Virus record (IMG/VR): IMGVR_UViG_3300006143_000285
Length of the DNA stretch: 48,178 nucleotides
Direction: 5' to 3' (one strand)
Source of the DNA: a virus
Lineage: Duplodnaviria > Heunggongvirae > Uroviricota > Caudoviricetes
In this document: positions 35,389-46,728 of the stretch, one piece after another
How the letters are laid out: every line of letters begins with the position of its first letter
Numbering within the stretch: the first letter of the stretch is position 1
Program-made: the position numbers and the translations under genes
The notes under the pieces: generated by a model
Told to the model about the DNA's origin: nothing
Database searches by the model: none
The model's input: the letters and a program-made list of their open reading frames with translations, nothing else

Positions 35389-35751
35389 TTACCGCTTACA
35401 TTCAAGATATTCCTTGGCCAATTCCTTAGCGTGATTTCTCCACGCCTGCAATTCAAGTGCTTCGTTACGATATTCCTTTGCTTTATCTTCCGGAACTGAA
35501 GTAGCATCAAGCATTAGCTGCATCATATTAGAATTAATAGCCTCAATCTGGTCTGAACTATATTTTGCGTAAATAATAGCAGTCACAATTGCGCCATAGT
35601 TCCATACTCCTAATCCAAGAGTTGCGCTGACCCATTCAAATGAGCCATCTTCTTTCTCTTGAACATCGAAATTAATTGTCCTCTGTTTAATTCCAACTAC
35701 CTTAACGAAGGTCACTGCTTCCGGTTTCGTAGTTCCAGTTTGGATATTCAT
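35389..35751 (-). CDS. Small tail-fibre-associated protein
   Basis: IIYAKYSSDQIEAI...LQAWRNHAKELAK; follows the fibre/DGR cassette. Confidence 0.55.
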   Translation of the reverse strand: MNIQTGTTKPEAVTFVKVVGIKQRTINFDVQEKEDGSFEWVSATLGLGVWNYGAIVTAIIYAKYSSDQIEAINSNMMQLMLDATSVPEDKAKEYRNEALELQAWRNHAKELAKEYLECKR

Positions 35752-37192
35752 ATCTAAGTTCCTCCTTGCGTATTAATTGTTGTTGATAGTCATATTTTCG
35801 CTTAATTCTTACAAATCCCATATCAGAGTTTAATACACAAACCTTGCGAATGTCTTCAAGATAGGGTTTATAGAGTTTTGAGCGCATCTGAAATGAACGA
35901 TGATGAACTGAGAAACCAATGTAAGAATTCATTGAAGATACCTCGTTCTGCAATCGCTTCAATTTACTCAAGGTAGCTCCACGATTGGCGATAGAACGAC
36001 AAAGAGCTGCCAATGTAAAGATTTGATCGTGCATTCCGCCATAAGTACGGCTTGCCAAATATGTTCTATGAGGCATAATTGTTGTTCCCACAAATTTGCA
36101 GCCGTGAGATACTTTCTGGAGATAGAATTTGTCTCTGTGCAAAGTCAGATGGAGATACAGGCTGAGCCATCTTTCAGCAATGGCTCGGATTTTCAAGATT
36201 GCTTCTTTACTACCTACGATAGTGAAATCATCGACAAATCGTTTATAACAACAGCCATATCTCATACACAATTTCAACATTATCGCATCAAAGAACGACA
36301 AGTAGAAGTTTGCACACAATTGACTGAGAATGTTCCCGATCGCCATACCAAAGTGTCTCGGTCTATTAAACATAGACTTGTGAAATGGTAGGAAATCCCA
36401 CATGCGGATGTCCGATTTCCTAATGCAATCATCCTGAGGGCAATGAAATACTTGCTGTTTCGTCAATCTAAGCAAGACATCAAGATCCTTCTCGTGATAA
36501 TTCTCCTTGATAAATGGCTCCAGTAAGGCCCAAAGAATATTGCGGTCAATGTGCATAAAGAAAGCCTTAATGTCAAATCTTCCGACATGGACATCATCTT
36601 TCGTCCACATATCACTCATATACTCCATATCAACTTTAAGGGCTTGTGCTGCTCTTAAAGTCCCGAAGCCTTTCCTGCAATTAAAAGATACGTTGTGCTG
36701 TAAGAAAAAGCGGGTTTCAAATAGAGGGTTCAGCCTTAGACAAATCCAATGCTGAACAACCCTATCACGAAACGCTGCTGCAAAGATTTCCCTGAATGAT
36801 GGGAACTTTACGATGAAGCATGTTGATGTAGTGGGTTTGTAGTCTCCGTAGTATATCTCATACATAAGATTCCACAATTCCCAGTTCTCAATCATGCGCC
36901 ATTCTTCACATTGAGAAGTAGAATATTTATTGGCACAACAATCATCTTTGGCAACCACCCAACCTTCCTTAATCTCCGCATCTAATGCGACAACTGCACG
37001 AACCCGGTTACTGTTGTACTTGTTGTTGTTGTTCGTGTTGCCATCCGAGAAGTTGACGTTCCATGCGTTGTTGCGACTGTTCTCAGATGCGCTACGCGCA
37101 GTCATGTGGCTAATTTTCGTCGTAACAAAGTCCTGATTTCTCAGTAACTCTGTGCCACACCCATTCAATGATAAGAGATTATTAATATCCAC
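35702..37192 (-). CDS. DGR reverse transcriptase (ORF includes the TR in frame)
   Basis: REIFAAAFRDRVVQH, DIKAFF, GMAIGNILSQLCANFYL (DGR-type SQ motif), RFVDD, FVG; adjacent to Avd and TR/VR. Confidence 0.93.
   Translation of the reverse strand: MDINNLLSLNGCGTELLRNQDFVTTKISHMTARSASENSRNNAWNVNFSDGNTNNNNKYNSNRVRAVVALDAEIKEGWVVAKDDCCANKYSTSQCEEWRMIENWELWNLMYEIYYGDYKPTTSTCFIVKFPSFREIFAAAFRDRVVQHWICLRLNPLFETRFFLQHNVSFNCRKGFGTLRAAQALKVDMEYMSDMWTKDDVHVGRFDIKAFFMHIDRNILWALLEPFIKENYHEKDLDVLLRLTKQQVFHCPQDDCIRKSDIRMWDFLPFHKSMFNRPRHFGMAIGNILSQLCANFYLSFFDAIMLKLCMRYGCCYKRFVDDFTIVGSKEAILKIRAIAERWLSLYLHLTLHRDKFYLQKVSHGCKFVGTTIMPHRTYLASRTYGGMHDQIFTLAALCRSIANRGATLSKLKRLQNEVSSMNSYIGFSVHHRSFQMRSKLYKPYLEDIRKVCVLNSDMGFVRIKRKYDYQQQLIRKEELRYEYPNWNYETGSSDLR
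36984..37093 (-). repeat. DGR template repeat (TR)
   Basis: 110-nt near-identical copy of 37725-37834; 12 AAC codons; all 16 differences are at TR adenines (sense strand). Confidence 0.96.
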
Positions 37193-37228: not shown

Positions 37229-37624
37229 TTATCGCCCAAGCCATGCGTCTATTTGGACGCTGATTTGGTTCACTAAGTCAACAAACTCACCCTCATGTCG
37301 TGGCGAAACTACAGGAATCAAGTCTCCCTTATGATTAGTAAACCTCACCTTTTTAAAGACGCGCACCATTGTTTTCAATGATGTCAAGCGTAGGTGTAGG
37401 TTTCCATGACATTCTTTACGAGCGGTAATATATGTTGCTGAATTTCTGTCAAGTCCATAAGCAATTGAAATGATGTCCAAACAATCATTTACATTACTTA
37501 TAAACTTACCTCCCAAAACTTGATAGGGAGTCGATTTCGGGAGACGACTAATCATCGGAATTGAAAGAATCATAAGTCGTTCCGTCAATCTATATACAGG
37601 AGTTTGTGAAGATTGGTGTTTCAT
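37229..37624 (-). CDS. avd: DGR accessory variability determinant (Avd-like four-helix bundle)
   Basis: PVYRLTERL...RLPKSTPYQVLGGKF...L...QIDAW pattern; lies between the target and TR/RT. Confidence 0.8.
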   Translation of the reverse strand: MKHQSSQTPVYRLTERLMILSIPMISRLPKSTPYQVLGGKFISNVNDCLDIISIAYGLDRNSATYITARKECHGNLHLRLTSLKTMVRVFKKVRFTNHKGDLIPVVSPRHEGEFVDLVNQISVQIDAWLGR

Positions 37625-37687
37625 ACCAAAGATAATATGTTGTGTGCCAACGATTTGCAAAACAATATAGATATTCCGGTATTTATA

Positions 37688-37720: not shown

Positions 37721-40700
37721 TCAAAATGCGACAACTGCACGAACCCGGCTACTGCCGTACTTGCTGCCGCCGTACGTGCTGCCATCCGAGAAGTAGACGT
37801 ACCATGCGTAGTAGCGACTGAGCTCAGATGCGCTCCAGTACCAAGTGTTCGTGAATGCTGTAAAAACTCCATCCACTCGTCCCTGAGCGAAGATCGCGCC
37901 TTCATCGCCAACTTCGTAACCACAGCGATGGAACCAGCACAAACGAGCTAAGTCGCCTTCACAGGGTAATGACCACTTACCGGCTAAGAATAGTGGAGAA
38001 AGCTCCTCGTCGGTTTTAACCGCAGGCTGATAACTGTGACAAAGTGAAGCCGCTGGGTAATAAAATTGACGGTATTTTGCAGCACCCAAATCGTTAACAA
38101 TATTTAACATCAACTGATTAAGGTGCTCCATTTCAGTCATTTTGTCACCCACATAAGGCACTGGAAGGTTCACCGCAGAGTCATTCAATATGATGTTGCG
38201 GTGCTCAATAATTTGTAAAGTTTTCAATAAACTTTTTGAAATTATTTCACCCTCCTTATACCCAGCGATAGGAGATCGAAGCTCTTGAAAGCCCATATCG
38301 CCCATTGCTGTAGTAGGACTCATTATCTTAAATCCATCTTCATCACCGTATTCTTCATCGCGAAATGTTTCAGCTGTGATATACGCATTATCCTTACCAT
38401 CCAATGTCGTTAAGCCACGACTGGTGATATTTTGAATTGTAGGTATGTCATAAACATCATAATTCAATGTATCGTCCAGTTCTATATCTCGAATATTGTA
38501 ATTCAAGTCATTTGCGCTACCTTCTATCCAGTTCTGATCAGTGGTTGTATTGTTGAAATACAATCCCCACTGAATACCAGTTGACACATCTGATAATGCA
38601 ACGGCCAAACGGTTTTGCGGATTTTTCCTGTCAATATAGAAGCAAATACCTACTACTGTCTTAGAACGATCCAGCACATTAGAGTATGAACCGTCAGCAA
38701 ATACATAATCACCTAATTTACAAGACCTATGATAGAAACCTACGGTCACAGTATCAGAAACCTCTGTTCCATCTGTCAAAGTAACGGTCACTGTGATTTG
38801 AGCGATGGGCTCTTGCTCCTCAGTGCCAACTTTCGTAACTGTAACTATACCAGTCTTGGAGTCAATTGTAGCATAACCATTATTTGTCATCGCCCAACGA
38901 ATTGCTGAGAATTTGTTGGCATTATTGGAATTTGGCTGTACCTTCAATTGATAAGTGCCTGTCTTATCGAAGTATTTCTGACCGACAACGCTAACATTCT
39001 GTAAAGGACGCTGAGTGTATTTCAGCCGTAGCTTGTTGTTTTCTTTATCAACATCGCCCCATTTTGCCAAAATCTTTTGTTTCATCTCAAAAGTCAAGTT
39101 ATGGCTTGAGTTGATTTCAATATAGCCTTCCAAATCAGAATCTATATCCACCAGTTTCATCAAGTTGTTGATAGAGAAGTTGGTCCAGTTAATGTTGTCA
39201 ATCTTGCAACTGCTTAACTGAGAACCATCCTCAGTCAACAAACTGGTTATCAGTTGCTGGCTGTTCAGATTTGGACAATTATGGAACGTCAGAGTCTGAA
39301 TATGCGCAACTCCTTCAATCTCAAAATTTTCAGTATCGAGATTGGTGTAATTTTCCATTGATAAGGCAGTCAATGTTGCAGGCAAAGACAATTTGGTAAT
39401 CTTAGTCGGATCGCCAACCATAAACTGTGTGATAGAAGTCCCCCAAGCATCTAATGACTCTAAGCGTGTTTGTGCAGAGAAATCCAAAGCACCGGTTACA
39501 GAAACTCGATTCCGCAAATCAATCTTACGCAACATTGGTGCAGTGGCAGTAACTTTGGGAGGTCTAAATTCTGCTGGCATAGCAGAGGCGACAAATTCTG
39601 TCAATCGTTCACCGGCTATACCAAAGGCCTCACCCTGAAGCGGTTTATTACCAAATTCACCAATATTGGTGTAGTAGTCAATGCCATGTAGCTGAATGTT
39701 GGTATTGCCATCAGAAGGAATACCGGCAAGCCTAAAGACCTCGCCAGCCTTAACACGAACAGGACGCGAATTTCCTGTACCAAAGTATGTTGACGAACCT
39801 GAGCTTGCTGCCGGATAGAGCCACAATGCTGGAGTCAGATCGAAATCGTATGTTGGGTTTTCGCCACTCAACATCTTTACAGAACGGAATGTCAACGAGC
39901 CTTGTCCATTCATCGAGAATTGTCCGTAGGAAGCATACGATGAAATATAGATTAGACGTTGACGCATCCATTCCAGCTCATTCTCCAACTGAGAGCCGAG
40001 TGACTGGGCAAGCGGATGAACTGAAGCCACATATTTGCCCTGTTGCCATGCAATAGCTGCTGTCTCGTAACGAATTCGAGCTGTCTCATTGTATGCTACA
40101 GCTGGAATTGAACGAGCAATGCGGTAGTAATAGTTCTCCATGAATTGCATCAATGGGTCACTATTCGCCTCCATAATTGCGCCTTGCTGAGAGGCCAATG
40201 ATGCCATCGCTGTCAGTATCGAGCGCATCATTGAGCGCATTTCATCAGGGAAAGCCAACTCAAACAAGTCATACATAGCATTTTCTTCACCATTCCAGTA
40301 AGGCATATTGTCTGCGTTACGGTCGTGTGTTTCAATGTAGTACGGTTTGTTCAAACGCCCCTCATTATCTGTTTTCTTGATGGAGTCAAGGTCATCTTGG
40401 GCAAAGTGGATGACAATGCGGCCCTCGTAATAATCCAAATACAAGTATGTATTTTTAGCTCGGTTGTCAGTTGCCGCAATCAAGAGCACAAAGCATAGAT
40501 GATATAGAGCATCGTCACGCTTAAAATACAGATGAGCATTATTTCTGAATCGTTGCACACGAGCAGTCTTGAATTGCTCATTAACCGTTTCCCATACATT
40601 CGATACCGGAGTGACCCCCAAGTCAGTAACCATATTAAGTTTTGCATACTGACCATCGCCCAATTTGTTAACGCCAGCATCAACCCATTGCCCTGTCAAC

Positions 40701-43700
40701 ACATCATAACGGAATAGGTCATATTGCGCAGCTCCATCCCCAGACTGTGTTACCCAATAAAAATGCTGGTTATTAACTGACTGAGATTTTTGAAGTTCAG
40801 ACAGTTTGCCAACAAACGGATGGATATGAGGTGAATTCAGATATACAAAGTTGAAAGCACTGCGGAAATAGCTTACGTTATCGGCCGAACCGAGACAGAT
40901 TTCCCATTGTTTACCACCATTGAACATATAGATTTCACCATCTTCATCTGGCTGGATGTCATCATTCCAAGGGATGCGGTGATTGGTCAGAGGCTGACCG
41001 TTGTCGCAACCCTCAAGCATCAAATAATGGGGAAACTTATCCATATCACAGGCAAAAGTTGGCTTATCACCCTTACCCGGACCAAATGTGTAAAGCCCAA
41101 AAAACTCAGGCTCATTATCGCCAATTTTAACAAAGCCAAGGAATTCTTCCTGTTTGACCGATACTCGGCAATTTTCGTAACCCGGAGTGTTTGTCATAGT
41201 CGAGCCACCAGTGACTGCTTTCCACAAATCATTGAAAGCATTAACAGAGCCCATCTTGTGTGTTTGCTGAGAAGAGGCCCAGTTTGCCTTTGCCACAAGT
41301 TTAGCTGCTTCAGGATCGCCATCATTCAAAGCATAGACGCTTTTATGTTCGACTCCATGAATATCAACCCAAGTACCCTTGACTTTGCTTAATACTGCAT
41401 CGTCTTTATGGTTTTTGGTCTTGGGGTTCATTGCAATGTTCCAACCAAAATAGGTCATTGAAGACGTGCCCTGTCCAAGCAAGAACCAGTTATACAAAAA
41501 CTCATCCTTAAATCCATCAGCGGTTTTACGACCAATAATGGTTACAGGAGAAAGTATTTCGTATTTCTTAGTATCTCCATAAGCAGGGAGGTGAGCACCT
41601 TCGTCGATACACCAACAAATCGTTTGGTATTTCTCGTGAGCTTTTGCATAAGAAATCCGGCCATCATCACCCAGCAAATCATTTGCTTGACGGATAGCCA
41701 ATTTCTGCGACACACTCGCTTGCGATGCCATATAATTCTGAAGCACATCAGATGACGACAACGCAGTATGGTAGATACGAAGATTATAGATGTCTATGTC
41801 TGTACCTACAGACCCAAGGCGAATACCTTGCGATGTACGCACACCATCCACAAACTGCACAAATACATCGGATGTTTCCCATGTAAATTCACGAGAACAA
41901 GTACCATTTACAAATATTCGCACCATATTGACCGACGAGCCGTTGATGCCATACACAATATTGACCATCAGATGTGTACGCTTGTCTCGCAAGAAGCCTA
42001 CGTCCTGATCATCAACACTACGATTCGATTGAGTTAGGAAGCGTCCACTAATAGGAAGCAATTCAAAACCAAGAGGCTTTTCATCGGGCATATATGAACA
42101 CATTCTCAAAGCAGGCTTGTTCTCGTCCGTGACATTGCGACTTGCAAAATCTAACTCTATGGTTAGTGAGCGACGATTATCTGTACCAATGTAATCTTTG
42201 AAGGTTTCATAATCTATGTCGATAGATGTGCCAGAAGGGAGACGAAGACATTTGTTATTATCTTCATCGGTAATCCAGCCATCCGTAACAAGTCCGAAAT
42301 TCTTCCAAACCGATGGCACAATTTCACCAGTAACACTGTTGATAATAGACATCGGATTAACTTCGTCATTTGTACGAGAACGAGGGTTAATCGCCATCCC
42401 ATAGCCAGCTGTCGGAGCAAAGTTCTCAGTGTTATCCACTGAAAAGCCAATCATTTCGTGAATTTCGGTTTCGCCTGACAAGAAACGCATATAAGCATCA
42501 ATGCTCACTTCATCGGACTCAATTTCAATGACATTGATAAGTGCTCGGCGTTCATTAGGCGTAACTTCGCCAAGGTCAAGTGTCATATAATTTTCAGTTC
42601 CGGCATAATTCATCAAAGCAAGTTTCAATGGCAATGCCTGACCCGACGGATTATAAAGTGAGTATGTAAAAAGCTGTTCTGTAGTCCAGTTCGTGATGGA
42701 TTGCTTTAGATCATTGAGTAGCAACCTTGGTGTTGTATCAGCCGGATCTGTGACAATCATGTGCTGTGATGTTAGCGTCTCACTAACGACATCAGAATTA
42801 TTGACAGAAAGCCAAGCCTGAACAGTGTGTACCCCATGTGTGATGATTTTGTTAGGCTCATCATCTGTATCTGATATACTACACTGATAAGGTGTCTGGG
42901 TGTAAGTTGTCAAACCGAGAGGGAATTCTACTTTACGCTTTCCATCAATCAGTACATGAAGTGTTTTGGCAACCGCTCCATTGATATAGTACCCCAATCG
43001 CAATACTCCATCAGTCACTGGTTGCTCCCAAAGTGTTGAAAGCTGCAAGCCAAGAGTAGTCCTTGTAACCCAAAAGCTCAAATAGCGTGTGCTCAACTCA
43101 GTGGTTTCGCCTTTGACGATGATACGCACTTGTTGACGGCCACTTGCCATCATGGACGTAAGGTCTGCCTCAAACCACTTATCAGAATCACTGGGGATAT
43201 AAGGAATATTGATAGTTCCTTTGGTCGTCCATTGTGCCGATTCATTCAATCGAGTTTGCACAGTCATTACGCCACCTTCCTGAGTGTCGTTAGTCGATTG
43301 ATCAATTGGGTTGAATTCCTGTGATGTGAATTTGACATTCAGTTTCACCGTATTGTCAATCGTCACAATATCACCGCTTGTTTCACGCAATAGCGAAACA
43401 ATATAGCTGACAGCAGATGAGCCGCCACCGGTATCAGGCAGCGAAACATCTGACAATAGCAATTCTGCGTATGTGTCAGGGTCAGAATTCCAGTTGAGAT
43501 AGTCTTCTTCAGAGGCAAACCCATAAATGTGATAGCAGTTGTCCGCACCCTTTTCTTGAGAGCGTTTGAATACAGATGGCTTTTTCGAGAGTCCATCATT
43601 CAAATCAGAGGCTGCTTTCTCAAACTGGGCCTTGATGAAGTTTTCAATGTCTTCGATGTCATGGCACGTTCCCGCATCAGGGTCGCACCAAGGTTCATCC

Positions 43701-43744
43701 AAAGACTCAATTGTCTTCTTTACGACCTTTAGTTTCTTTGCCAT
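37721..43744 (-). CDS. DGR target: 2007-aa multidomain tail/adhesin protein (LamG-like, CotH-kinase-like, LRR, Ig-like, C-terminal CLec-type VR domain)
   Basis: C-terminus WSLPCEGDL...YWSASE...AWYVYF...RVRAVVAF carries the VR; internal motifs as described in the findings. Confidence 0.88.
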   Translation of the reverse strand: MAKKLKVVKKTIESLDEPWCDPDAGTCHDIEDIENFIKAQFEKAASDLNDGLSKKPSVFKRSQEKGADNCYHIYGFASEEDYLNWNSDPDTYAELLLSDVSLPDTGGGSSAVSYIVSLLRETSGDIVTIDNTVKLNVKFTSQEFNPIDQSTNDTQEGGVMTVQTRLNESAQWTTKGTINIPYIPSDSDKWFEADLTSMMASGRQQVRIIVKGETTELSTRYLSFWVTRTTLGLQLSTLWEQPVTDGVLRLGYYINGAVAKTLHVLIDGKRKVEFPLGLTTYTQTPYQCSISDTDDEPNKIITHGVHTVQAWLSVNNSDVVSETLTSQHMIVTDPADTTPRLLLNDLKQSITNWTTEQLFTYSLYNPSGQALPLKLALMNYAGTENYMTLDLGEVTPNERRALINVIEIESDEVSIDAYMRFLSGETEIHEMIGFSVDNTENFAPTAGYGMAINPRSRTNDEVNPMSIINSVTGEIVPSVWKNFGLVTDGWITDEDNNKCLRLPSGTSIDIDYETFKDYIGTDNRRSLTIELDFASRNVTDENKPALRMCSYMPDEKPLGFELLPISGRFLTQSNRSVDDQDVGFLRDKRTHLMVNIVYGINGSSVNMVRIFVNGTCSREFTWETSDVFVQFVDGVRTSQGIRLGSVGTDIDIYNLRIYHTALSSSDVLQNYMASQASVSQKLAIRQANDLLGDDGRISYAKAHEKYQTICWCIDEGAHLPAYGDTKKYEILSPVTIIGRKTADGFKDEFLYNWFLLGQGTSSMTYFGWNIAMNPKTKNHKDDAVLSKVKGTWVDIHGVEHKSVYALNDGDPEAAKLVAKANWASSQQTHKMGSVNAFNDLWKAVTGGSTMTNTPGYENCRVSVKQEEFLGFVKIGDNEPEFFGLYTFGPGKGDKPTFACDMDKFPHYLMLEGCDNGQPLTNHRIPWNDDIQPDEDGEIYMFNGGKQWEICLGSADNVSYFRSAFNFVYLNSPHIHPFVGKLSELQKSQSVNNQHFYWVTQSGDGAAQYDLFRYDVLTGQWVDAGVNKLGDGQYAKLNMVTDLGVTPVSNVWETVNEQFKTARVQRFRNNAHLYFKRDDALYHLCFVLLIAATDNRAKNTYLYLDYYEGRIVIHFAQDDLDSIKKTDNEGRLNKPYYIETHDRNADNMPYWNGEENAMYDLFELAFPDEMRSMMRSILTAMASLASQQGAIMEANSDPLMQFMENYYYRIARSIPAVAYNETARIRYETAAIAWQQGKYVASVHPLAQSLGSQLENELEWMRQRLIYISSYASYGQFSMNGQGSLTFRSVKMLSGENPTYDFDLTPALWLYPAASSGSSTYFGTGNSRPVRVKAGEVFRLAGIPSDGNTNIQLHGIDYYTNIGEFGNKPLQGEAFGIAGERLTEFVASAMPAEFRPPKVTATAPMLRKIDLRNRVSVTGALDFSAQTRLESLDAWGTSITQFMVGDPTKITKLSLPATLTALSMENYTNLDTENFEIEGVAHIQTLTFHNCPNLNSQQLITSLLTEDGSQLSSCKIDNINWTNFSINNLMKLVDIDSDLEGYIEINSSHNLTFEMKQKILAKWGDVDKENNKLRLKYTQRPLQNVSVVGQKYFDKTGTYQLKVQPNSNNANKFSAIRWAMTNNGYATIDSKTGIVTVTKVGTEEQEPIAQITVTVTLTDGTEVSDTVTVGFYHRSCKLGDYVFADGSYSNVLDRSKTVVGICFYIDRKNPQNRLAVALSDVSTGIQWGLYFNNTTTDQNWIEGSANDLNYNIRDIELDDTLNYDVYDIPTIQNITSRGLTTLDGKDNAYITAETFRDEEYGDEDGFKIMSPTTAMGDMGFQELRSPIAGYKEGEIISKSLLKTLQIIEHRNIILNDSAVNLPVPYVGDKMTEMEHLNQLMLNIVNDLGAAKYRQFYYPAASLCHSYQPAVKTDEELSPLFLAGKWSLPCEGDLARLCWFHRCGYEVGDEGAIFAQGRVDGVFTAFTNTWYWSASELSRYYAWYVYFSDGSTYGGSKYGSSRVRAVVAF
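37725..37834 (-). repeat. DGR variable repeat (VR) + IMH
   Basis: Aligns ungapped to the TR over 110 nt; the 3' GTTCGTGCAGTTGTCGCATT is invariant. Confidence 0.96.
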
Positions 43745-44175: not shown

Positions 44176-46728
44176 TTAAAAAATAATAGGGAAATCGTAA
44201 GGGAAACAGTTTCCGTTTTTCGTTAAAATTTCACAGATGTATGCTTCGGCACCAGAAATTTGTCCTGAAACTGTCAGTATCTTTGAGTTTCTATCAACAA
44301 TGACATTATTGGCATGACCGGTGTCAGACACCTCCTCAGTTATCCACCAGTTTTCCACTTCGTGCTCCAAATCTGGAAGCTGGTATTTATGCCATTGGTA
44401 AATGAAATGCTCATTAACAAACTCATCAGACAGAGGCTCCCCTTGGTAATAGACCTGAGCCGTCAATATCGTGTCAACATTGCCATTTCTGAATGAATTG
44501 CCTTTGGAAGAAGTAACTTCCACGGTATAACCATCCATCAAGTATTTGCGGATGGTTATAGTGTCTGTATATTCCTTATCCTGATATGTATCTACGACTT
44601 TAATGATCAGTTGGCTTTCCTTGTCGCCCCAATACGGATCATCTGGATATATGGTGAGAACTGTGTGGATGTCATTAAGACCTGAAGTAATTTCAATTTC
44701 CTGTCCATCAGAATAATAAAACCACTTACGGCCAGCAGCAACCTGATTCATACCAGTCTCCTCAATGGTTAGCTTTACGAAGTCTGGTGAATACAACACG
44801 CCCGCATCAGTGCTACCCATTACAGCAAAAGTGTCACCGCCTGTAATGCGCATGGTCTTATTTTCAAGATTATGCTTTGTGTCTTCGCCTAAGTTACCCC
44901 AATTCAAATGCACATTCGGGCCAAACAACACATTTCCAAATTCATCCCACTCAATACCATGATTGGCAAGATAACCGGAACCATCCTGATTGATTCTGAA
45001 TGAATGACTACGAGCTTCAATCGCACCTTCGCCATCTGCATTAAGTTTCAAAAGAGGGTTTTGGATAGTACCGCCAATACCACCGCGATTGAACCATGCA
45101 CCATAATCTTCGCACATGTGCGTAACAATTTCATCAGTTGGCTGATACTGGGTTGCATTGCGCCCCGACTCCAATTGTGGAGCCGTAAACAATAGGACAC
45201 GTTTCTCGGCAGAATCCGCACCGTCTCCAGTTAAAGGAGTAAATGCGACCGATACTGAAAGGATTACATCCTCATTGTCAGTATCTTGCAACTTAAATGT
45301 AACCTTTTGACGATGCCACCCAAGTATCTCTGAATGTGGTATTTGTACCGTACCGACGACCTTAGCATTTTGAAGTATGGTTAATTGCCCACCACATTTG
45401 CTGTAAGTCCAGAACGAGAATGTGTAGTCCGCACCAACCCTTACTACATCAGGCTGATACAACCAGTTGTAAAGTTGTGCTGTCAATGAAATTGACTGTG
45501 TGATAGCAAATACTTGACCAATGCCAGTAGGATTAACCGTTCCGTGCAACGTCAAAATATCGCCATCAGCTAAAGGCAATACATCAGCATCCGGCGCAAT
45601 AGAGTTGATAAATGCGTTCTTATGTATTTTGCCTGCATAGAAAGTCGCAGCAAACCCATTTTCATCACCAGCAGTCAATGTACCGGAAATATGAGCAGAC
45701 GTACTTGCAAAAAGTTTCTGAAAGTAACCGCCATAACTATCGAGCTTGCCAAAAACAGGATCTGAAATGCCATTGAGTTTTCCAACTCGAATCTGGCTCG
45801 CCTCTCCATAGTTAGCGACACTGGATAGCAAAATGGCGTTGAAGTCAGCCACATAAAATTCTTCATCTGACTGAATTTCGGTCAAATTAAAATTGATTGC
45901 TCTACGATGCCTACCAGAAAGGTCAACTGTGATTGGGAATAAATAGTAAGCCCAATTTTCAGTCAGCTTAACATCAACAGTACCATCAGTGCGTGATTCA
46001 TCTACATAAGCAAGATTTAGCTTAATAGTCCTTGCAGTCGATGCTTTAGCCCAAAAAGAGACCAATACCTGATTCGGGTTCTGCACATATTGACTGAAAA
46101 TCTGCTGAATGGAAGCACTACCACCAATTAATTTCTTGATGCGGCATATACGACTTCGATCATTTTCATTAGCAATATATTCTACCTCGCACTGATTAGC
46201 CTTGACAATATATTGACTCTGTGGATCATCAAACGCCCCATTGTTAATATTCTCCGGCCAAGTCAAGCTGCAATTTCGACCAATTCCGTCAATGACATCC
46301 ATATATGGACTCTCATCATCAGAAGCAGTAAGATACAACGCCCCTGAACGTGATTGGTCAAACAAGTTGGTGATTCTGACAAAATCCAATACTTCGCCGG
46401 GCATTGGAGCATCGCCCTCCAGCAGCATACCTATAAACCACGGTTGCTGCTTAGTAACCGTTTGAGTCTTATATTCAATAGGGTCATTGGAAATCAGCTC
46501 ATAGTTGCCATCAGCATCTACGACCGCTTCCTCAACATCAACATTATCGACCCCATATTCCAATACACACATCAGCGAGTAGATGACATTCTTGCCGTCA
46601 AAATATTGACGACGAACAATGTCACCAGTTTTCAACCCTTGTGTCTTTCCACCCTTACCATCAGGCTGTCCTTTTGCTGATTCAGGTTTTAACGATATTT
46701 TAAATTTTCGTGTCTTAGGTATAGACAT
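44176..46728 (-). CDS. Tail protein with carbohydrate-binding-like modules
   Basis: GDIVRRQYF motif, VSFWAKAS, APQLESGRNATQYQP, DGSGYLANHGIEW repeat shared with the 923-aa tail protein. Confidence 0.6.
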   Translation of the reverse strand: MSIPKTRKFKISLKPESAKGQPDGKGGKTQGLKTGDIVRRQYFDGKNVIYSLMCVLEYGVDNVDVEEAVVDADGNYELISNDPIEYKTQTVTKQQPWFIGMLLEGDAPMPGEVLDFVRITNLFDQSRSGALYLTASDDESPYMDVIDGIGRNCSLTWPENINNGAFDDPQSQYIVKANQCEVEYIANENDRSRICRIKKLIGGSASIQQIFSQYVQNPNQVLVSFWAKASTARTIKLNLAYVDESRTDGTVDVKLTENWAYYLFPITVDLSGRHRRAINFNLTEIQSDEEFYVADFNAILLSSVANYGEASQIRVGKLNGISDPVFGKLDSYGGYFQKLFASTSAHISGTLTAGDENGFAATFYAGKIHKNAFINSIAPDADVLPLADGDILTLHGTVNPTGIGQVFAITQSISLTAQLYNWLYQPDVVRVGADYTFSFWTYSKCGGQLTILQNAKVVGTVQIPHSEILGWHRQKVTFKLQDTDNEDVILSVSVAFTPLTGDGADSAEKRVLLFTAPQLESGRNATQYQPTDEIVTHMCEDYGAWFNRGGIGGTIQNPLLKLNADGEGAIEARSHSFRINQDGSGYLANHGIEWDEFGNVLFGPNVHLNWGNLGEDTKHNLENKTMRITGGDTFAVMGSTDAGVLYSPDFVKLTIEETGMNQVAAGRKWFYYSDGQEIEITSGLNDIHTVLTIYPDDPYWGDKESQLIIKVVDTYQDKEYTDTITIRKYLMDGYTVEVTSSKGNSFRNGNVDTILTAQVYYQGEPLSDEFVNEHFIYQWHKYQLPDLEHEVENWWITEEVSDTGHANNVIVDRNSKILTVSGQISGAEAYICEILTKNGNCFPYDFPIIF

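Follow-up and report, generated by a model that had tools for sequence, protein, structure and literature searches.

A divergent CotH-family kinase-like domain in the shaft of a hypervariable phage tail-fibre protein

CotH-containing fibre proteins and the giant gene of IMGVR_UViG_3300006143_000285

CotH domains have been reported several times in the targets of diversity-generating retroelements (DGRs). Ye (2014; PMC4159848) counted CotH among the DGR target domains, and Wu et al. (2018; PMC5758913) described as 'category f1' a set of ~2000-residue targets with CotH and Laminin_G_3 motifs. Roux et al. (10.1101/2020.04.01.020958) found that the members of PC_00012 carry a CotH-like kinase and suggested that it contacts the part encoded by the variable repeat (VR). 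Benler et al. (2021; PMC8008677) described phage fusions of a CotH kinase domain with a hypervariable C-type lectin as 'currently unstudied', and Macadangdang et al. (2024; 10.1101/2024.11.15.621889) assigned to the Bacteroides 'domain group 3' proteins of >2000 residues with CotH (5JDA), carbohydrate-binding motifs as well as leucine-rich repeats (LRRs). Here, we analyse a protein of this kind, the 2007-residue product (P0001) of a giant gene at positions 37721..43744 of the IMG/VR virus record IMGVR_UViG_3300006143_000285, whose complete 48,178 nucleotides we call the window. Positions refer to the window unless another locus is named, and all window features described below lie on the minus strand.

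The giant gene is a single open reading frame (ORF) for a tail-fibre or adhesin-type protein and matches phrog_24896 and phrog_14959. An earlier note on this DNA had read its product as a hypervariable receptor-binding protein joined to a kinase fold, and this description holds: the protein is a DGR target within the tail-fibre module of a gut Bacteroidales phage. Its N-terminal, kinase and tip blocks each align with the family, and its homologues match Laminin_G_3 and CotH. Like the giant CotH targets of category f1, PC_00012 and domain group 3, it has ~2000 residues and the order LamG-like, CotH-like, LRR, C-type-lectin VR, and it is encoded in a tail module with the DGR immediately downstream. 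No architectural difference from these proteins was found; the fusion of CotH and DGR-diversified fibre has been published repeatedly, and the window protein adds a further member to it rather than a new architecture.

An exhaustive phmmer search with residues 700-1400 returned 504 relatives, nearly all of 1900-2300 residues. Relatives were located in ~80 genome assemblies of Bacteroidales and other gut taxa. The block conserved in the phmmer matches runs from about residue 750 to about residue 1390, the matches reaching residues ~1386-1399. The nearest database relative of the CotH-like domain, 88% identical, is on a Bacteroidales metagenome-assembled genome (MAG) contig, and many genomes of Bacteroides, Phocaeicola, Prevotella and Parabacteroides have prophages that encode relatives of the fibre; megablast of the window against phage records gave no match. 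Among cultured phages, gp27 of Bacteroides phage BS-TP1 (PQ571274.1) aligns over 98% of residues 700-1400 at 31% identity. The BS-TP1 layout also matches that of the window, with tail fibre genes, a 2187-residue protein, a four-helix-bundle protein and a reverse transcriptase (RT), and gp27 is listed as a DGR target by the authors of that phage (PMC12694917). Some relatives (in L007, L012, L013, L020 and L027) lie on MAG contigs labelled Saccharibacteria, Akkermansia, Oscillospiraceae, Eggerthellaceae or Staphylococcus; because the great majority of relatives belong to Bacteroidales, these are probably mis-binned phage contigs.

More distant CotH-fold phage proteins are present in BFVD, including cr272_1, cr52_1 and cr124_1 of crAss-like phages, gp353 of Bacillus phage G and a 'CotH kinase protein' of Siphoviridae sp. 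They likewise carry the fold in large proteins, often together with LRR or internalin-like modules, but are only 11-16% identical to the window domain. Other phage-encoded kinase folds, such as T7 gp0.7, 933W Stk and the HipA-family kinases of 'Gratiaviridae' (PMC8008677), are cytoplasmic; they come from other kinase families and function as soluble early or takeover proteins, not as domains of a virion receptor-binding protein.

Fold and family membership of the CotH-like domain

The earlier note had placed a CotH-kinase-like domain at positions 40100-41550 (residues 731-1215), and structure prediction bears out the fold. An AlphaFold2 model of residues 740-1400, built on an alignment of 46 homologous segments (A2) drawn from the 504 relatives, reached a predicted local distance difference test score (pLDDT) of 90.5 and a predicted template modelling score (pTM) of 0.92. 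In a Foldseek search of the PDB, it gave only two significant matches, the Bacillus cereus CotH kinase structures 5JD9 and 5JDA (Mg/AMP), at E 5e-7, probability 1.00 and a template modelling score of 0.6 by target. VIA-align superposed the model on CotH kinase with Z 22.3 and a root-mean-square deviation of 3.8 Å, aligning 317 of 358 CotH residues, and its next matches were other atypical kinases at Z 7-10.5 (CtkA, HipA, Fam20 with Z 8.2, and PI3K/PI4K). Because the superposition on 5JD9 spans model residues 6-533, we place the CotH-type core at residues 745-1272 (39929..41512). The core does lie where it had been proposed, but it extends to residue 1272 (position 39929), ~57 residues past the suggested C-terminal bound.

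Comparisons of sequence profiles point in the same direction. The Pfam CotH family (PF08757) is matched by 12 of the 46 A2 homologues, with a best E of 9.7e-6. One homologue (P0157, 38% identical to the window protein) exceeds the gathering score of 23.8 with 24.4 bits, and its match covers CotH profile positions 142-236, which correspond to the TDNRAKN...QDDLD stretch. We also assembled a canonical set of 27 CotH domains from bacterial genomes (88-238 bits to PF08757), to which hhalign aligned A2 over 174 C-lobe columns with a probability of 90.3% and E 1.5e-6. In the reverse test, the hidden Markov model (HMM) of A2 matched a canonical CotH ORF (L087) with the same residues aligned at the catalytic loop. 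As modelled and aligned, residues 745-1272 truly belong to the CotH family of atypical (protein-kinase-like) kinases, as a divergent member.

Further searches added no relatives outside the family. A phmmer search of the sequence against the PDB found nothing, and a word-indexed profile search returned family fragments and a split form of the protein (see below), with no bridge to canonical CotH proteins. A cofilin match at E 0.36, obtained with the family profile against PDB sequences, was dismissed as chance. In the sampled bacterial class (G006-G309), canonical CotH domains are very common and multi-copy: 165 of 301 genomes have them, a single genome as many as 8 matches, and the ORFs are 420-1680 residues long; this tally includes the unpublished genomes G104 and G190, sequences of which enter none of the alignments.

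The Bacillus CotH kinase and the phage domain share the atypical kinase fold as well as the positions and spacing of the equivalent Asp, Asn and metal-binding Asp residues, and both are tied to the building of a large proteinaceous assembly. They differ in sequence, with 10-14% identity, and in size, the phage domain comprising ~530 residues with large insertions as compared to ~330. Moreover, the Bacillus protein is free-standing, whereas the phage domain is embedded in a 2007-residue virion protein that has no known substrate.

Active-site residues and the case for phosphotransfer

The four motifs on which the earlier note had based its proposal are present in order and in one frame of the 2007-residue ORF, all within the range that it gave. 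They are GQGTSSMTY (residues 757-765, 41450-41476), KLVAKANWASS (815-825, 41270..41302), IAATDNRAKNTYL (1089-1101, 40442-40480) and FAQDDLDS (1114-1121, 40382-40405). We counted their conservation across ~200 homologues with an overall identity to the query of 30-60%. In the catalytic loop TDNRAKN (1092-1098, 40451..40471), D1093, K1097 and N1098 are each invariant (203/203). The same is true of D1117, D1118 and D1120 (160/160 each) in the QDDLD motif (1116-1120, 40385..40399), the predicted counterpart of the CotH 'WD.D' with D1118 as the DFG-like metal-binding Asp. Upstream, the GQGTSS loop (757-762, 41459..41476) resembles a glycine-rich loop and lies at the position of the CotH 'RGxSS', with Q758 conserved in 181/181 and G759 in 194/194 members. 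The KLVAKANWASS strand and turn, modelled as a strand followed by a long helix, contains the invariant K819, N821 and S824 (199/199 each), and G888 and K891 are likewise invariant (201/201).

The alignment of A2 to the canonical domains pairs D1093 with the Asp of the CotH N-x-D, N1098 with the loop Asn, D1118 with the 'WD' Asp and T-Y-L-Y with the N-x-Y-x-Y strand, and hmmsearch gives the same pairing for the catalytic loop and the QDDLD motif. The claim that a catalytic-type Asp and Asn are retained is thereby upheld, as is the equivalence of the two C-lobe motifs to their CotH counterparts; the N-lobe pair had been equated in the same way, but its sequence match is not significant by itself. 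The two Asp residues are 25 positions apart here, 23-26 in canonical domains and 23 in Bacillus subtilis CotH (D228 and D251), the canonical Asp being equated with D228 through spacing and the literature and not by direct alignment to the B. subtilis protein. Substitutions D228Q and D251A are each cited as abolishing the activity of B. subtilis CotH (PMC7821199 / 10.1101/469122, citing Nguyen 2016). The D-x4-N spacing of the phage loop, which the earlier note had taken for the CotH pattern, is found in a minority of canonical domains (L087 and L083, the latter with the same Lys); most have D-x7-N in place of the phage D-x4-N with its invariant Lys.

Invariance of these catalytic-type residues is, at the level of sequence, the signature of a working active site. 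Accompanied by conservation in the two-gene split form described below, it is the reason why we favour an active enzyme: the phage CotH domain is probably no scaffold but a phosphotransferase that depends on Mg/Mn and nucleotide. K819 may serve as its ATP-binding Lys.

The domain could also be a pseudo-kinase, which would keep the CotH fold and serve the fibre as a rigid spacer or as a module for ligand binding, perhaps binding nucleotide or metal for stability but without phosphotransfer. Its place within a structural protein, its large divergence from canonical CotH (the 10-14% identity given above), insertions of ~200 residues in total when set against the 358-residue CotH chain, and the departure from the canonical KK and Trp would all agree with this. 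The D-x4-N loop, the DDxD motif and several N-lobe Lys, Asn and Ser residues are nevertheless absolutely invariant among the ~200 relatives, and pseudokinases usually lose at least one such residue. We therefore regard a pseudo-enzyme as unlikely, and an active phosphotransferase as the more probable of the two.

Several points weigh against an active CotH kinase. At the level of family assignment, Pfam searches with P0001 and with residues 700-1400 gave no CotH match even at E<=10, and hhalign of the N-lobe alone returned E 0.17, which is not significant, even though it reproduced the pairing of GQGTSS with rG.SS and of KLVAKANWASS with L.a...D.S. The N-lobe equivalences rest on structural superposition. 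Comparison of N-lobe sequences did not identify the ATP-binding Lys/Glu pair, and the invariant 'KK' of the canonical domains has no match where the two align. In the C-lobe, the phage motif reads 'DD.D' where CotH has 'WD.D', the Trp being replaced by Asp. Kinase folds can perform other chemistry or none, and the CotH proteins of Mucorales have been studied as invasins and ligands, not as kinases. The finished virion works extracellularly, where ATP is scarce, and the 12 ORFs of the tail region contain no Ser/Thr-rich substrate repeats of the CotB/CotG type (at most 11 Ser plus Thr in 30 residues).

For an active enzyme, the scheme that we tentatively prefer is that the kinase domain would act while the infected cell makes the fibre in its ATP-rich cytoplasm. 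Before lysis, it could modify the fibre itself by autophosphorylation, other virion proteins or components of the host envelope. This simplest of the schemes needs no extracellular ATP. There is a parallel in Bacillus, where CotH phosphorylates structural coat proteins during spore assembly. Taking all points together, a divergent CotH-family kinase domain in the fibre shaft that is likely active seems the best explanation, by a judgement that falls only a little on the favourable side of even.

Fibre architecture, tip diversification and a split lineage

The CotH-like domain sits in the fibre shaft, with a beta-sandwich and LamG part on one side and the LRR, Ig-like and hypervariable C-type-lectin tip on the other, and the map of flanking domains in the earlier note was essentially right. 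The N-terminal region (residues 1-450, 42395..43744) consists of a short alpha/beta head and a tandem beta-sandwich array (model m0bc64fc98f59). In the AlphaFold2 model of residues 1-745 (pLDDT 86), the head and the run of beta-sandwiches are followed by a jelly-roll at residues ~455-660 and a helical linker; the Foldseek matches of this model were all tandem beta-sandwich arrays of a generic kind, from complement MG domains, adhesins and mastigoneme. The jelly-roll (41765..42382) is an all-beta block of LamG/ConA type. P0001 itself has no Pfam match in this region, and the assignment comes from the model and from Laminin_G_3 matches in 3 of 36 homologous N-terminal segments (best E 2.7e-6).

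Downstream of the kinase core, a further beta-sandwich (residues ~1284-1385, 39590..39895), formed by strands at 545-646 of model mb182063755e9, belongs to the conserved block of the family. It is followed by putative BspA-type LRRs (residues 1437-1522, 39179..39436; PF13306 LRR_5, E 2e-4, below the gathering score) and by a weak Ig-like domain (residues 1623-1668, 38741..38878; PF18957 RibLong, E 0.0045-0.0088, also below the gathering score). The C-terminal tip (residues 1680-2007, 37724..38707) is of the C-type-lectin/DUF1566 type and carries the VR. It matches PF07603 (Lcl_C) at residues 1905-2004 with E 4e-7 and is conserved in at least 70 homologues.

Such an arrangement of modules bears on where the enzyme might act. 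Once the lectin tip and the LamG and LRR modules had bound the Bacteroidales envelope, the CotH domain could phosphorylate a sugar of the capsule or lipopolysaccharide, or an outer-membrane protein, using extracellular ATP or another phosphate donor and thereby aiding adsorption or blocking superinfection. Consistent with this, modules of carbohydrate-binding type flank the domain, and many canonical bacterial CotH proteins are long and multidomain (ORFs of 450-1680 residues), with several copies per genome in 165 of the 301 genomes of one class. Glycan-phosphorylating enzymes with a kinase fold exist (Fam20B, POMK), and Fam20 is among the fold matches of the phage domain (Z 8.2). On the other hand, no extracellular donor is known, no donor-supplying function is encoded in the window and no substrate has been identified. 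Action on the host surface is entirely inferential, and we consider it rather doubtful. Its strongest form, in which the virion carries an active enzyme and the DGR-diversified lectin tip selects the host-surface glycan or protein that it phosphorylates (an 'enzyme with a programmable targeting head'), seems to us more doubtful still.

The DGR directly downstream of the giant gene is complete. The VR forms the last 110 coding nucleotides of the gene (37725..37834) and is 85% identical to the 110-nucleotide template repeat (TR; 36984..37093), with all mismatches at TR adenines. The TR is located inside the 5' part of the RT ORF (35702..37192), which matches PF00078 (RVT_1) with 34 bits, above the gathering score. 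The start of this ORF is upstream of the TR, and its reading frame continues across the repeat (36984-37192); residues 4-67 of the ORF match Lcl_C. Between the target and the TR/RT lies a 143-residue ORF (37229..37660) that has no Pfam match; a four helix bundle protein occupies the equivalent position in phage BS-TP1, and by its position only the ORF is a candidate Avd-type accessory protein. A VR at the 3' end, adenine-specific mismatches to the TR, an adjacent RT and a tip with the Lcl_C fold together mark the giant gene as a DGR target.

Related proteins also occur in an abundant lineage in which the fibre is encoded by two genes. Its ~1100-residue proteins end just past the catalytic loop; one representative (P0191) alone stands for 4191 sequences, and phrog_24896 corresponds to this half. 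In three loci (L115-L117), the first gene stops after '...TDNCAKNTYPY...' and the next starts 2-5 nucleotides further on in another frame with 'M..SKW.[FW]RQDD[LV]D...'. The split point (L115:9230-9420; L116:11270-11330) falls exactly in the hairpin that joins the catalytic loop to the metal-binding DD.D motif. Every catalytic-type motif is kept in this lineage.

The split lineage has no DGR. A 926-bp segment (L116:12854-13779, and the same coordinates in L117) is inverted between two metagenome contigs and is 100% identical as the reverse complement. It comprises the 3' end of the second fibre gene and a cassette on the opposite strand, is flanked by ~74-bp inverted repeats and adjoins a tyrosine recombinase gene. 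Tip switching by DNA inversion appears to replace the mutagenic retrohoming of the DGR in this lineage.

The exchange of tips also bears on a proposal in which kinase and hypervariable tip form one unit, the VR lectin folding back on the kinase and catalysis being gated or targeted by ligand binding. This goes back to a published suggestion based on I-TASSER (Roux et al., 10.1101/2020.04.01.020958), which is all that speaks for it. However, ~400 residues (beta-sandwich, LRR and Ig-like) lie between the two domains, and the tip of the split, invertible lineage is a different, swappable cassette without a DGR, so that a fixed interface between kinase and tip is not conserved. A complex prediction for the kinase core and the C-type-lectin tip scored 0.00, below the mark, and is evidence neither way. 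We consider such a unit very unlikely.

The window itself is a phage fragment with nearly every gene on the minus strand, and it also encodes NrdD, a split DNA polymerase, a DnaB-like helicase and SbcC. On the upstream side of the giant gene, two ORFs match tail and tail-fibre PHROGs, one of them also CBM_4_9. The 850-residue protein encoded directly upstream (44176-46728), with a CBM_4_9 match (E 4e-5) and a match to a tail-protein PHROG, is probably a further component of the fibre or baseplate.

Giant CotH fibres are among the commonest DGR targets of the human gut virome. A strictly conserved kinase-type active site in such a receptor-binding protein implies a step of adsorption or virion assembly that is absent from current phage biology, and this step can be approached experimentally now that a relative, BS-TP1, is in culture. 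Should the domain prove to be a targeted enzyme carried by the virion, it would have no known precedent as a kinase acting from a phage tail fibre. In that case, the tolerance of a split in the active-site hairpin, along with the exchange of tips by inversion, would identify the kinase as the functional core of the fibre, the part that stays constant.

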